Virus record (IMG/VR): IMGVR_UViG_2645727743_000020
Location: 1 to 37,319 of that record
Source of the DNA: a virus
Taxonomy: Duplodnaviria; Heunggongvirae; Uroviricota; Caudoviricetes
DNA: 37,319 bases
Reading direction: 5' to 3' (one strand)
Below are positions 1-37,319 of this stretch, piece by piece (within the stretch, counting starts at the first letter, position 1; the number at the start of each line of letters is the position of its first letter). The notes under the pieces were generated by a model. The model made no database searches, was not told where the DNA came from, and worked only from the letters and a program-made list of their open reading frames with translations. The translations under genes were made by a program, and so were the position numbers.

Positions 1-141
1 TTACTGCTTACACTGTAAGAACGCCGCAAACTCCGCTCCCCAGAAGCTCATCCGTATTTCACACAGCGAACCGTGCAACATCCAGATGATGAGGATTGCC
101 GTCACGCAGAACGTGATGGCCGTAAGCGATTTTTGCGACAT
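1..141 (-). CDS. hok: Hok/Gef-family type I toxin (46 aa small membrane peptide)
   Basis: ATG at 141, TAA at 1..3; AAGGAG SD about 9 nt upstream; product MSQKSLTAITFCVTAILIIWMLHGSLCEIRMSFWGAEFAAFLQCKQ has an N-terminal TM helix and the SLCEIR / E-x-AAF motifs conserved in Hok and Gef; too short for the ORF track (<60 aa). Confidence 0.6.
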   Translation of the reverse strand: MSQKSLTAITFCVTAILIIWMLHGSLCEIRMSFWGAEFAAFLQCKQ

Positions 142-271
142 AGCACTTGCTCCTTTTCCGGAGAGGCGCTAACCTTTCACTTGTCAAGGTAATGCGGTTA
201 GGGCCTCGGTTAAACAGAGATGTTTTCCGGGGCCTTTCCACATCTGGCCTTCGGGTATTCCCTCCGACCAT
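59..271 (-). CDS. mok-like overlapping reading frame (70 codons) covering the hok start
   Basis: Track ORF starting ATG 271, different frame from hok, ends inside hok; same architecture and length as mok of hok/sok loci; weak SD; product is low-complexity. Confidence 0.3.
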   Translation of the reverse strand: MVGGNTRRPDVERPRKTSLFNRGPNRITLTSERLAPLRKRSKCYVAKIAYGHHVLRDGNPHHLDVARFAV

Positions 272-331
272 TAGCCGAAAGGCACCCGCGCGTAATCTAT
301 CGCTTTTTTGTTACTCCGGCAATTCTGCCTG

Positions 332-592
332 TTAATTCTGAGGTAAAGGCAAGCTCATCTGATTGTTTCCCCTGTGTGAAGCTGGCAGCTCATGCCACGG
401 GATACCTTCTGAAGAGTGAACGCCGGAGGCGTGTTTCGATGTGAATTTATGGAAAGCTTCCAGTGTTGAGAAGCATACGCCGCATTCCAGATTGTTACAC
501 TGGTAATACTTTTGCCGTACGGTGTTTGAATCATTTTCCGGGCGACTGGTGCGGATACGGGCAGATGCGCCACAAAGCGGACAACGGAACAT
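332..592 (-). CDS. ogr: Ogr/Delta-family zinc-finger late-gene transcription activator
   Basis: MFRCPLCG...RTSR...YYQCNNLECGVCF matches the Cys4 zinc finger of P2 Ogr (MFHCPLC...RTSR...HQCQNVNC); GGGAGG SD 5 nt upstream of ATG 592; about 14 aa longer than P2 Ogr at the C-terminus. Confidence 0.85.
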   Translation of the reverse strand: MFRCPLCGASARIRTSRPENDSNTVRQKYYQCNNLECGVCFSTLEAFHKFTSKHASGVHSSEGIPWHELPASHRGNNQMSLPLPQN

Positions 593-904: not shown

Positions 905-1462
905 TCAGATTAGGGCTATCTGCTGATTATTTAGCTTCTCCAATCTTTCAGACAGTTTTATCTTATCTTCAACTTTTTCCAGCGATGATGCTGACATAAA
1001 GCTAATCAGCTTATCAATATCTTTAGGTTCTTTGATAAGAACAAACTCCCTTGTCTTATTAATGAAAACAGCTGAGTTTTTCTTTCTTGATAGCAACTCA
1101 ATGACGTTGCTCAGTGTTCCCGGACTTTTTGTATCCCAAACCATAAGGCCACAGTCTGCTGTTTCTGCCATCTTTATATCTTTGGCTGTGTAGAAATCTC
1201 GAGTTCCGGGTCGGAAGTTTGATTTAACGAGTTTCACGGGCCATGCACCAAAATTGTTTCGTGGCTTGGCATCACTAGTGAACACAGTGGTTGCGCTATA
1301 ACCCAATTGTTTTAGTTCCAGCTGTACGGAAGAGTCAACGCCAGAGGCGTCACCGACGATAACATTAAAGTTCTTGTCAACAATCTTCTTTAAGCGCTCA
1401 ACGATAAGCGGGTCGAGCTTTTTAATGGTTATCGAGCCAGCAACGAAAACTGTCGTTGTCAT
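905..1462 (-). CDS. SLOG/DprA-like Rossmann-fold protein, second gene of the PRTase pair (ShosA-like candidate)
   Basis: ATG 1462 with GGAG SD, 2 nt after the PRTase stop; motifs VFVAGS...VIVGDASGVD and SPGTLSNVIELL resemble the glycine-rich loops of DprA/LOG (SLOG superfamily); family assignment is by motif only. Confidence 0.55.
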   Translation of the reverse strand: MTTTVFVAGSITIKKLDPLIVERLKKIVDKNFNVIVGDASGVDSSVQLELKQLGYSATTVFTSDAKPRNNFGAWPVKLVKSNFRPGTRDFYTAKDIKMAETADCGLMVWDTKSPGTLSNVIELLSRKKNSAVFINKTREFVLIKEPKDIDKLISFMSASSLEKVEDKIKLSERLEKLNNQQIALI

Positions 1463-1464
1463 GG

Positions 1465-2052
1465 TTATCTCCAGGTTAGTGCTGCTACATAAATTTTATT
1501 GATTTTATTATAACCGCGTAACGCTGTAACTGCAGCTTCCATGGATGCTCCTGTATGGAAGAGATCATCAACGATGAGGGCATTAAAAGGGCCATCCCCG
1601 ACAATTTGGTTTTGATAAGAAAAAGCGTCAGCAACAGCAGCTTCTTTCTCTTCTTTAGTGTTCAGATTTTTCAAAGACACGCCACCAGGTGCTTTGATTA
1701 ATAACTCATTGAAGCTAAACATGTTATTTCCCATTTTTGATGCCAGAGCGTCAGTAATTGCTGTCACGGGTTGAATTTTTCGAACATTTGAAGCTGCCAT
1801 TGGGATGATTAATTGTATGTTTTGAAAAAGAGGCACAGCATTAACTAATAGGCACTGGGCAAGCGCATCAACTTGGTCCATGTCATTTTGATATTTTAAC
1901 TGGTATACGGCTTCTCCAACCTCCGTGCGATCGTTTTGAAACATAGGCTTGCCATACTCGTTATCACCTAAATAAGTACTCTTAATCAAATGCTTATCCA
2001 TCGCGTAACCTAAATCCCAGTTACCCGTAATTGGCTTGATGTTTACTTTCAC
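1465..2052 (-). CDS. Type I phosphoribosyltransferase-domain protein (ShosT-like candidate)
   Basis: GTG start 2052 with AAGGAAA SD; PRPP-binding signature ALIVDDLFHTGASMEA near the C-terminus; inserted between tail gene D and ogr. Confidence 0.7.
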   Translation of the reverse strand: MKVNIKPITGNWDLGYAMDKHLIKSTYLGDNEYGKPMFQNDRTEVGEAVYQLKYQNDMDQVDALAQCLLVNAVPLFQNIQLIIPMAASNVRKIQPVTAITDALASKMGNNMFSFNELLIKAPGGVSLKNLNTKEEKEAAVADAFSYQNQIVGDGPFNALIVDDLFHTGASMEAAVTALRGYNKINKIYVAALTWR

Positions 2053-36344: not shown

Positions 36345-37319
36345 ATGAGCATAAAATCAATTCCGGGAGGGTATCTTCTTGACATGCGCCCTGAGGGGCG
36401 TAAAGGCAAACGCATTCGCAAAAAATTTAAAACGAAATCGGATGCAGTTTTATATGAGCGGTGGGTGCTGGCGCAACAGCATAACAATGAGTGGAAAGGA
36501 AACTCCATTGATCGCCGTCCGCTGTCGGTGCTTATTGACTTGTGGTGGAAATACCACGGCCAGCTAATGAAGTCAGGGCATAACACGCGCCTTAAATTGC
36601 TGCGCTTGAGTGAGGCAATGGATGACCCGTGTGTGCATAAACTTAATACAACGATGCTCACCGAGCTACGTGTGTCCAGGATAGAGCAGGGGATACAGCC
36701 CAGCACCATTAATCGAGAGATTGGGGCGTTAAGCGCGATGTTTACCGCACTCATCTCATCCGGCCATTTTCTTAACGATAACCCCGTTCAAGGCCTTAAA
36801 GGAATGAAGGTTAACGAGCGCGAAATGGGATATCTGAGTAAGTCTGAATGTGTTCAGTTGCTGGATGCACTGGCTGAAAATCCCGATGAACGGCTGGCTG
36901 TCGAAATCCTTCTGTCGACCGGGGCGCGATGGGGCGAGGTAGCGGCACTGGAGCAGCGCCGTGTTCTTCATTGTCGAATCACTTTTTCAAAAACGAAGAA
37001 CAGCAAAAACCGTACAGTTCCTATTTCTGAAAGCCTGTTTGAAAAGATCAAAAAACGGGGCGGGAAACTGGTGTTTCCGACGCTGGATTATCCATTGGTT
37101 CGCGATGTCATCAAAACGGTCGCACCTGATGTTCCTGACGGCCAGGCTGTTCATGCGCTGCGCCACACCTTCGCCAGTCATTTCATGATGAACGGCGGCA
37201 ATATTCTGACGCTCCAGAAAATTCTGGGGCACGCAAAGATTCAGACAACGATGATTTATGCCCATCTTGCGCCGGATTACTTGCAGGATGCGGTGAGATT
37301 TAATCCTATTGCTGGGTAA
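36345..37319 (+). CDS. int: Tyrosine integrase
   Basis: Start at ATG 36345 (MSIKSIPGGYLL), 324 aa; ARWGEV, HALRHTFASH and IYAHLAPDY catalytic-region motifs; TAA stop is the last codon of the window. Confidence 0.9.
   Translation: MSIKSIPGGYLLDMRPEGRKGKRIRKKFKTKSDAVLYERWVLAQQHNNEWKGNSIDRRPLSVLIDLWWKYHGQLMKSGHNTRLKLLRLSEAMDDPCVHKLNTTMLTELRVSRIEQGIQPSTINREIGALSAMFTALISSGHFLNDNPVQGLKGMKVNEREMGYLSKSECVQLLDALAENPDERLAVEILLSTGARWGEVAALEQRRVLHCRITFSKTKNSKNRTVPISESLFEKIKKRGGKLVFPTLDYPLVRDVIKTVAPDVPDGQAVHALRHTFASHFMMNGGNILTLQKILGHAKIQTTMIYAHLAPDYLQDAVRFNPIAG

Follow-up and report, generated by a model that had tools for sequence, protein, structure and literature searches.

At the left end of an E. 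coli prophage sequence lies a reading frame of 46 codons whose stop codon coincides with the first bases of the record, and it raises three linked questions: whether it encodes a genuine Hok/Gef toxin, whether it belongs to the phage or is crossed by the prophage boundary, and how its translation might be held in check. The window, by which we mean the whole stretch of 37,319 nucleotides analysed here (IMG/VR record IMGVR_UViG_2645727743_000020), is a P88-like prophage flanked in its host by greA and yhbY. We put at about 85% the probability that the locus at its edge is a complete type I toxin-antitoxin (TA) module of the hok/sok type, which the P88-like prophages of E. coli (Xuanwuvirus, P2 family) carry as cargo.

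A Hok/Gef-family peptide and its known relatives

The frame occupies positions 1..141 on the minus strand (ATG 141-139, TAA 3-1) and encodes the 46-residue peptide MSQKSLTAITFCVTAILIIWMLHGSLCEIRMSFWGAEFAAFLQCKQ; the strong ribosome-binding site described for it in a preliminary description of this DNA is indeed present, as the Shine-Dalgarno (SD) sequence AAGGAG at 155-150 (minus strand), 8 nt 5' of the ATG. That description had also assigned the peptide to the Hok/Gef family from its motifs, and the profile search agrees: Pfam PF01848 (HOK_GEF) matches residues 7-44 of 46 at 29.9 bits, above its gathering score of 22. Both motifs, SLCEIR and AEFAAF, are there, the hydrophobic stretch is LTAITFCVTAILIIWML, and residues C27, E28, A36, E37, A39, A40 and C44 are invariant across 19 homologues, so that the peptide has the size of around 50 residues, the N-terminal hydrophobic helix, the LCE motif and the C-terminal E-x-AA by which the family is recognised. 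The frame is moreover intact in every locus that we examined, across five genera, and its variability follows the codon: columns vary at 27/46 first, 19/46 second and 32/46 third positions, a pattern that marks it as coding. From these comparisons we take the frame to be a genuine Hok/Gef-family toxin gene. No defence-system model in PADLOC matched the peptide. The closest NCBIfam model is HokA (NF007290; 34 bits, E 2.2e-8), and with an equivalog cutoff of 89 bits we rejected HokA as its identity; in the catalogue alignments, K-12 HokA and the window Hok do have the C-terminus ...AAFLxCK... in common.

The locus is already known, as a common, annotated and catalogued prophage TA module. Routine annotation calls the gene 'Hok/Gef family protein', 1548 out of 5426 complete E. 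coli genomes have the locus, the same peptide is RefSeq WP_000078916.1, and records of P88-like phages label the frame 'MokW-like host killing'. A recent catalogue of Hok proteins (2025-26 preprint; Escalera-Maurer et al., bioRxiv 10.1101/2025.08.07.668861), which drew on IMG/VR and found Hok to be enriched in prophages, lists the identical 46-residue peptide as entry 72_1621 in the high-abundance Hok cluster 72. The entry was cloned (plasmid LRP137) for a toxicity assay in which 42 of 45 homologues were toxic, the only non-toxic ones being 19_179, 60_1482 and 69_1540, and 72_1621 is not among these (10.1101/2025.08.07.668861). The same work analysed the coding sequence only, deliberately setting aside mok, Sok and mRNA structure (10.1101/2025.08.07.668861). 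The protein of the cluster 72 entry is identical to that of the window; the placement of the gene between ogr and the attachment site is not described there. What the present analysis adds is a corrected anatomy, comprising the promoter, the 5' end, an fbi element and terminator that lie outside the window, and the position of a Sok-like RNA, together with the standing of the module as phage cargo.

A further relative is hokW-sokW of the Stx2 prophage Sp5 / 933W, a type I TA system established by experiment, which aids phage release (Takada et al. 2021, PMC8621323). It resembles the window locus in being a prophage-borne hok/sok-type locus; HokW, however, is 51 residues long, begins MKQQKAM and belongs to another Hok cluster. 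Sp5 has in addition another hok locus, unannotated, which lies downstream of lom at the end of the late operon and whose DNA is 82% identical to that of the window. The published primers and probes for hokW find no match in the Sp5 segment around this lom-proximal paralogue (L006), and for this reason, as well as the different peptide, we do not identify our locus with hokW.

Position within the prophage

Whether the locus was phage cargo or was instead cut by the prophage end had been left as alternatives, and it is the first that holds. The genome of E. coli VG35A2 is 99.9% identical to the window over positions 1-1500 (2 differences) and continues beyond its left edge, with greA on one side of the prophage and yhbY on the other. 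Comparison with the empty site in K-12 located a 20-bp attachment core, GGCCGCT(A/C)TGCGGCCTTTT, which is duplicated at both prophage ends and whose sequence is that of the greA/yhbY terminator. Its two copies (at 2716-2735 of L001 and about 3199-3218 of L003) bracket the element, and from the hok stop codon to the end of the nearer copy there are 265 bp. Positions 1-630 of the window are 95-97.5% identical to P88-like phages (Xuanwuvirus, Peduoviridae), and the homology with the P88 genome goes on for another 119 bp beyond the hok stop, taking in a terminator; the phage genome itself thus has hok, its 3' untranslated region (UTR) and its terminator. As the attachment core lies 265 bp beyond the stop codon and P88 carries the whole locus, the comparisons place hok as phage cargo (a moron) wholly within the prophage, between ogr and the attachment site, and the suggestion that the prophage end might fall inside the locus is no longer tenable.

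The left edge of the window is exactly the hok stop codon, and the same codon is the exact contig end in 47 of the 80 IMG/VR contigs that carry the gene. Considering that so many contigs end at this one codon, the edge is best read as an artefact of provirus trimming, and provirus edges at the hok stop should not be counted as prophage ends.

The neighbour on the inner side is a zinc-finger late activator of the ogr/Delta type (332..592, minus strand; 86 residues; Pfam PF04606, 52.4 bits), directly upstream of hok on the same strand. This adjacency recurs in 73 of the 80 IMG/VR loci, and the order D-ogr-hok is also found in Salmonella P2-like prophages at other integration sites. The same Hok cluster occurs elsewhere too: on plasmids near traI, beside Fic/Phd, in chromosomal tandem arrays and, in Salmonella, as tandem duplicates of the locus. 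Its occurrence away from phage late operons argues that the hok module is independent of ogr.

Conserved RNA architecture and a predicted antisense RNA

For comparison we assembled 26 distinct homologous loci from E. coli, E. albertii, Salmonella, Klebsiella, Citrobacter, P88 and the lom-downstream locus of Sp5, 21 of which entered a consensus structure of 76 pairs (RNAalifold). An alignment search of IMG/VR yielded 80 loci, all with an identical Hok, which serve for allele statistics and not for covariation, and one of genome contigs yielded 7, three of them in implausible hosts (probably contaminated assemblies). The transcript ends and the Sok-like RNA proposed below are drawn from homology and conservation across these sets.

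On the hok-sense strand, the Rfam family RF01794 (sok) matches positions 287..128 (minus strand) at 46.6 bits (E 6.5e-9), a score below its gathering score of 59 even though the match covers the full length of the model (positions 1-157). The start of this match suggests G287 (GGGUGCC...) as the 5' end of the hok mRNA, and in 20 of 21 loci GGGTGCC is also where sequence conservation of the transcript sets in, to stop only at the terminator. From G287, the leader would span 142..287 (minus strand), that is 146 nt, compared with about 173 nt in the hok/sok (parB) locus of plasmid R1, and along it lie the elements familiar from R1: tac (287-273), a ucb-like box GGAAAGGCCCC (about 239-229), a GAGGC box where R1 has its mok SD (207-203) and a dcb/anti-SD box GCCUCUCC (167-160), all on the minus strand. 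Elsewhere in the window, an Rfam match to SdsR/RyeB at 999-1085 (E 0.88) was treated as chance.

A promoter for this transcript is predicted at 294..322 (minus strand), with a -35 TTGCCG (322-317), a 17-nt spacer, a -10 TAGATT (299-294) and 6 nt to G287. Its -10 reads TAGATT, TAAATT or TAGAAT across the loci, always at a constant distance from GGGTGCC, and conservation among the homologous loci reaches up to this box. With 8/12 consensus matches the site falls under the threshold of 9/12 in a consensus promoter scan that returned no promoter-like site at all, and our promoter assignments accordingly draw on conservation and positional homology. The predicted promoter fits within the 44 bp that follow the ogr stop, its -35 beginning 9 nt after that codon, and the terminator scan found no intrinsic terminator from ogr until that of hok itself; the promoter space does appear to be squeezed against ogr, as had been remarked, and without a terminator between the two genes, read-through from ogr into hok is plausible.

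The 3' part of the mRNA had rightly been placed outside the window, and we took it from the near-identical VG35A2 genome. There, the hok stop is followed by an 18-bp hairpin, then by GGUCGAUAAGGCACCC, the fbi element of the 3' UTR, which is complementary to the mRNA 5' end GGGUGCCUUUCGGCU, and, some 30 nt further on, by an intrinsic terminator, about 120 bp past the left edge of the window. Extending the sequence leftward and folding it, as had been proposed, gives a 406-nt mRNA model (its 3' half from VG35A2) with a minimum free energy of -188.4 kcal/mol against a shuffle mean of -132 (z -10.1). In this fold a 15-bp helix of tac with fbi joins the two ends (nt 1-15 with nt about 338-353), the GAGGC box pairs with an upstream GGCCCCGG box, the hok SD pairs with an upstream CUCC, and the start codon pairs into the coding region.

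R1 is alike in several respects. There too, an mRNA of ~400 nt is closed from 5' to 3' by tac and fbi, and a ucb box holds the GAGG box, which lies about -70 from the hok ATG in R1 and is conserved at -66 in our loci; further points in common are the dcb/anti-SD box, AAGGAG as the hok SD, and a 3' hairpin whose stability would halt 3' trimming. The differences lie in the length of the leader, in a tail of ~55 nt more and a classical terminator that follow fbi here, in a Hok of 46 residues with the C-terminus AAFLQCKQ as against 52 residues in R1, and in the carrier, a P2-family phage here and a plasmid in R1.

The alignment of 21 loci supports this architecture: 98.4% of the cells in the consensus are paired, compared with 31-42% when the partners are slid, and 15 pairs have changed on both sides, observed values that none of 500 shuffles reached. 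Of the two-sided changes, the tac/fbi extension has three and the stem of the GAGG box one, and several fall in the 3' hairpin and terminator. Helices 1 and 2 of the consensus are 100% paired and include 3 two-sided changes and 2 G-U variants, and the SD helix (helix 6) is 99% paired. Most of the compensatory changes distinguish one clade, of E. coli type, from another, of Salmonella type, and so represent few independent events.

Removal of the last ~75 nt, fbi among them, alters the predicted fold. In the minimum free energy structure of the remaining 332 nt, tac pairs with nt 50-59 and the stem of the GAGG box is lost, while GAGGC (81-85) pairs with GCCUC (121-125), part of the hok anti-SD, a rearrangement that would reproduce the tac/ucb and SD/dcb logic of R1. 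The boxes concerned are invariant across the loci, and so yield no covariation signal for the truncated fold.

On the opposite strand, a Sok-like promoter is predicted at 147..175 (plus strand), its -35 TTGCTC (147-152) overlapping the hok SD and its -10 TAACCT (170-175) lying beyond a 17-nt spacer. This is a weak match to the consensus and is absent from the output of the promoter scan; its boxes (TTGCTC/TTTACT and TAACCT/TATCCT), however, keep their 17-nt spacing in 20 of 21 loci, with 18 nt in Sp5. An antisense promoter within the leader, with a -10 of TA(A/T)CCT and a hairpin RNA of roughly 60 nt, is again what R1 would lead one to predict here. The candidate RNA, of ~58 nt, would extend over 183..240 (plus strand), with a 5' tail of 13 unpaired nt, then a hairpin at 200-236 (-24.1 kcal/mol, z -3.9) and after it UUUCCA, a poor U-tail in the E. 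coli alleles which is better in those of Salmonella (UUUCGCUUUUCU). Conservation extends to its outer stem, where columns 54/89 show a compensatory change of G-C to A-U, and its 5' tail falls in the stretch where the loci differ most, as would be expected of a specificity determinant among paralogues. The predicted RNA is complementary to nt 48-105 of the hok mRNA.

Taken together, these parts suggest how the module could work. Transcription from the promoter behind ogr would yield the mRNA of ~406 nt, from G287 to the intrinsic terminator, locked at full length by the pairing of its 5' end with fbi, with GAGGC held by the upstream box and the hok SD and start codon held in helices, local and within the coding region. 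Slow trimming from the 3' end, as far as the stable 3'-UTR hairpin, would remove fbi; the 5' end would then pair anew with the upstream box, the freed GAGGC would capture the anti-SD, and the hok ribosome-binding site would open. As long as a presumably unstable Sok-like RNA is made, it would cover the very region that must refold, leaving hok untranslated and the duplex exposed to RNase III. Should its synthesis stop, whether because the prophage is lost, because an infecting phage shuts off transcription or because the phage is induced, Hok would enter the inner membrane and collapse it, and the cell would be killed or permeabilised.

A leader without a conserved mok

A more literal copy of the R1 system can be built from the preliminary description: Hok would be coupled to a 70-codon mok starting at 271, a long Sok would end at the T run that was put there at about 301-308 and in fact lies at 304-309, and the promoter and leader, like Sok, would run into the 3' end of ogr, whose stop (334-332) lies 60 bp from position 271. 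The frame certainly exists (59..271, minus strand): it is open in the window in the same register to hok as the mok of R1, and is kept in 49 of the 80 near-identical IMG/VR loci. Its ATG, however, lies 16 nt from the conserved and predicted 5' end, inside the tac helix and without an SD. Among the 26 distinct loci the frame is open only in the window allele; it is closed in P88 (by a stop at -46, at 95% nucleotide identity) as well as in Sp5, no Salmonella, Klebsiella or Citrobacter locus has it open, and even where Hok is identical it is closed or shifted in 31 of the 80 IMG/VR loci (21 of 46 leader haplotypes). The leader, for its part, has no codon-position periodicity. Given a frame open in this allele only, closed in 31 of 80 close relatives and lacking any coding pattern, we regard it as a chance feature of the window allele, so that of the mok once proposed the overlapping frame stands, and a conserved gene, start and SD do not.

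The T run fares no better. There is a T6 at 304-309 on the plus strand, in the spacer of the predicted hok promoter, which on the hok strand is A-rich in other loci too, but no hairpin precedes it: folds of 262-312 and 183-310 give only a 3-bp stem (-8.2 kcal/mol, z -0.09), the terminator scan did not pick it up, and we rejected it as the Sok terminator. The conserved hairpin at 200-236 already yields an RNA of Sok size, which would end inside the hok leader and overlap neither ogr nor the hok promoter, contrary to the overlap with the ogr 3' end once foreseen. We therefore give the literal R1 arrangement next to no credence.

The search for a conserved mok elsewhere in the leader was also negative: no conserved start (ATG, GTG or TTG) was found in either overlapping frame, a scan for near-cognate starts 4-14 nt beyond the GAGG box gave none that is conserved, and most loci have stops at -46 or -16 with no ATG, GTG or TTG upstream. 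By these alignments the cluster as a whole appears to be without a conserved mok, and herein lies its main departure from R1, where the mok ATG lies 9 nt after its GAGG SD and 58 nt before the hok ATG, is needed for Hok translation, and abolishes that translation when mutated.

Several chromosomal hok loci of E. coli K-12 are reported to be untranslated from their own mRNA. Perhaps, then, the window locus is a silent relic that has lost its mok, is never translated from its own mRNA and hitch-hikes in the prophage; the lack of any conserved mok start, near-cognate codons included, and the effect of the start mutation in R1 would both fit. We nonetheless consider this improbable. The frame is intact across five genera, with third codon positions the most variable, and an RNA architecture and an antisense promoter conserved with compensatory changes are not what one expects of a dead locus; the spread of the locus through E. 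coli genomes and its tandem duplication in Salmonella, as well as the reported toxicity of the peptide when expressed (10.1101/2025.08.07.668861), also speak against it. For the complete module, refolding of the truncated RNA would suggest, on folding grounds, that Hok could be translated without mok, and that Sok would block this translation over nt 48-105.

With the parts of the module taken as above, its role might instead lie in the lytic cycle, where read-through from ogr would outtitrate Sok or occlude its promoter, and Hok would permeabilise the cell and speed phage release in the manner of hokW-sokW, which doubles the release of Sp5 after induction. The arrangement invites the idea: the two genes share a strand, 9 nt separate the ogr stop from the -35, nothing resembling a terminator intervenes before that of hok, the adjacency is kept in most IMG/VR loci and in Salmonella prophages at other attachment sites, and the paralogue of the Stx phages also sits at the end of the late operon, after lom. 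In that paralogue, however, the lom terminator precedes the hok promoter, the same Hok cluster also occurs away from late operons, and a read-through RNA extended at its 5' end could still close via tac and fbi. We hold such a dedicated lytic role to be possible but rather doubtful, and continue to favour a self-contained hok/sok-type module carried as cargo.

The apparent lack of mok in Hok cluster 72 is the point most worth an experiment. We tentatively entertain the idea that the cluster is a naturally mok-less form of hok/sok, in which the RNA switch (tac/fbi, ucb, GAGG, dcb/anti-SD) has been kept and the leader frame is absent. Hok would then be opened either by GAGGC capturing the anti-SD or by a standby site at GAGG, and Sok would block this refolding or standby binding, and not the translation of mok; in P88-like phages, read-through from ogr might even tie the release of Hok to late-gene activation. 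If the absence of mok were confirmed, it would represent a second way of gating the translation of Hok in the best-studied family of type I TA systems.

Related loci in Stx phages, Salmonella and assemblies of unrelated taxa

A second complete hok/sok-type locus lies on the minus strand of the Stx2 prophage Sp5 (phage VT2-Sakai), just downstream of lom, at positions 2382-2789 of our comparison segment L006 (about 44.5-44.9 kb of AP000363.1). Whilst the same phage carries the experimentally characterised hokW-sokW, the lom-proximal locus is a separate one, with 82% DNA identity to the window, and it is also present in 933W and other Stx phages. Its Hok is a protein of 46 aa that begins MSQKSLITVTICM and corresponds to entry 72_1589 in the Hok catalogue; the original records of Sp5 and 933W leave the locus unannotated.

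Tandem arrangements were found in Salmonella enterica, where four contigs (L104, L105, L106 and L107) hold the window's Hok cluster in two to three copies, spaced 450-700 bp apart. Each of these copies has its own leader, fbi element (the 3'-UTR element that pairs with the 5' end of the hok mRNA) and terminator, and divergence between the copies is greatest where the 5' tail of the antisense RNA Sok is predicted to base-pair.

The E. coli-type hok was also found in assemblies assigned to a Planococcaceae MAG (L007), a Vagococcus sp. (L008) and Xanthomonas pisi (L011, a contig of 857 bp), with identities of 98% in the first two and 72% in the third; in the Vagococcus assembly, ogr stands upstream of hok. 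Enterobacterial DNA contaminating these three assemblies is the most likely explanation.

Prophage boundaries and the Rfam sok model

The left end of the window coincides precisely with the stop codon of hok, and 47 of the 80 hok-carrying IMG/VR viral contigs compared (L014-L093) end at this same point; provirus boundaries in IMG/VR are placed at the last called gene. For the window, this left-end trimming cuts away ~265 bp that truly belong to the phage, among them the 3' UTR of hok, the fbi element and the terminator. The right end also lacks some phage DNA, since the window stops at the integrase stop codon, and in the near-identical genome NZ_CP128590.1 a gene for a 131-aa hypothetical protein (segment L003, 2697-3092, beyond window position 37319) separates the integrase stop from the att core.

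The Rfam model RF01794 ('sok', 157 positions) matches the window at 128-287 on the minus strand, in the sense orientation of hok, over the stretch that runs from the 5' end of the mRNA up to the start of hok. What RF01794 effectively models is the hok leader and not the ~60-nt antisense RNA, and strand calls that rest on it can therefore mislead.

A low-GC cassette between ogr and D

A two-gene cassette separates ogr from the tail gene D and occupies window positions 905-2052 on the minus strand (flanks about 600-2250), with a GC content of 38-45% against 51-56% in the flanking DNA. It adjoins a window-type ogr-hok arrangement in only 7 of 5426 complete E. coli genomes. One product (195 aa) is ComF/phosphoribosyltransferase-like, with weak PADLOC matches to PsyrT (E 1e-7) and ShosT (E 0.002); the other (185 aa) has no match in Pfam, NCBIfam or PADLOC. 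The cassette may be a Shosta/PsyrTA-like defence moron.
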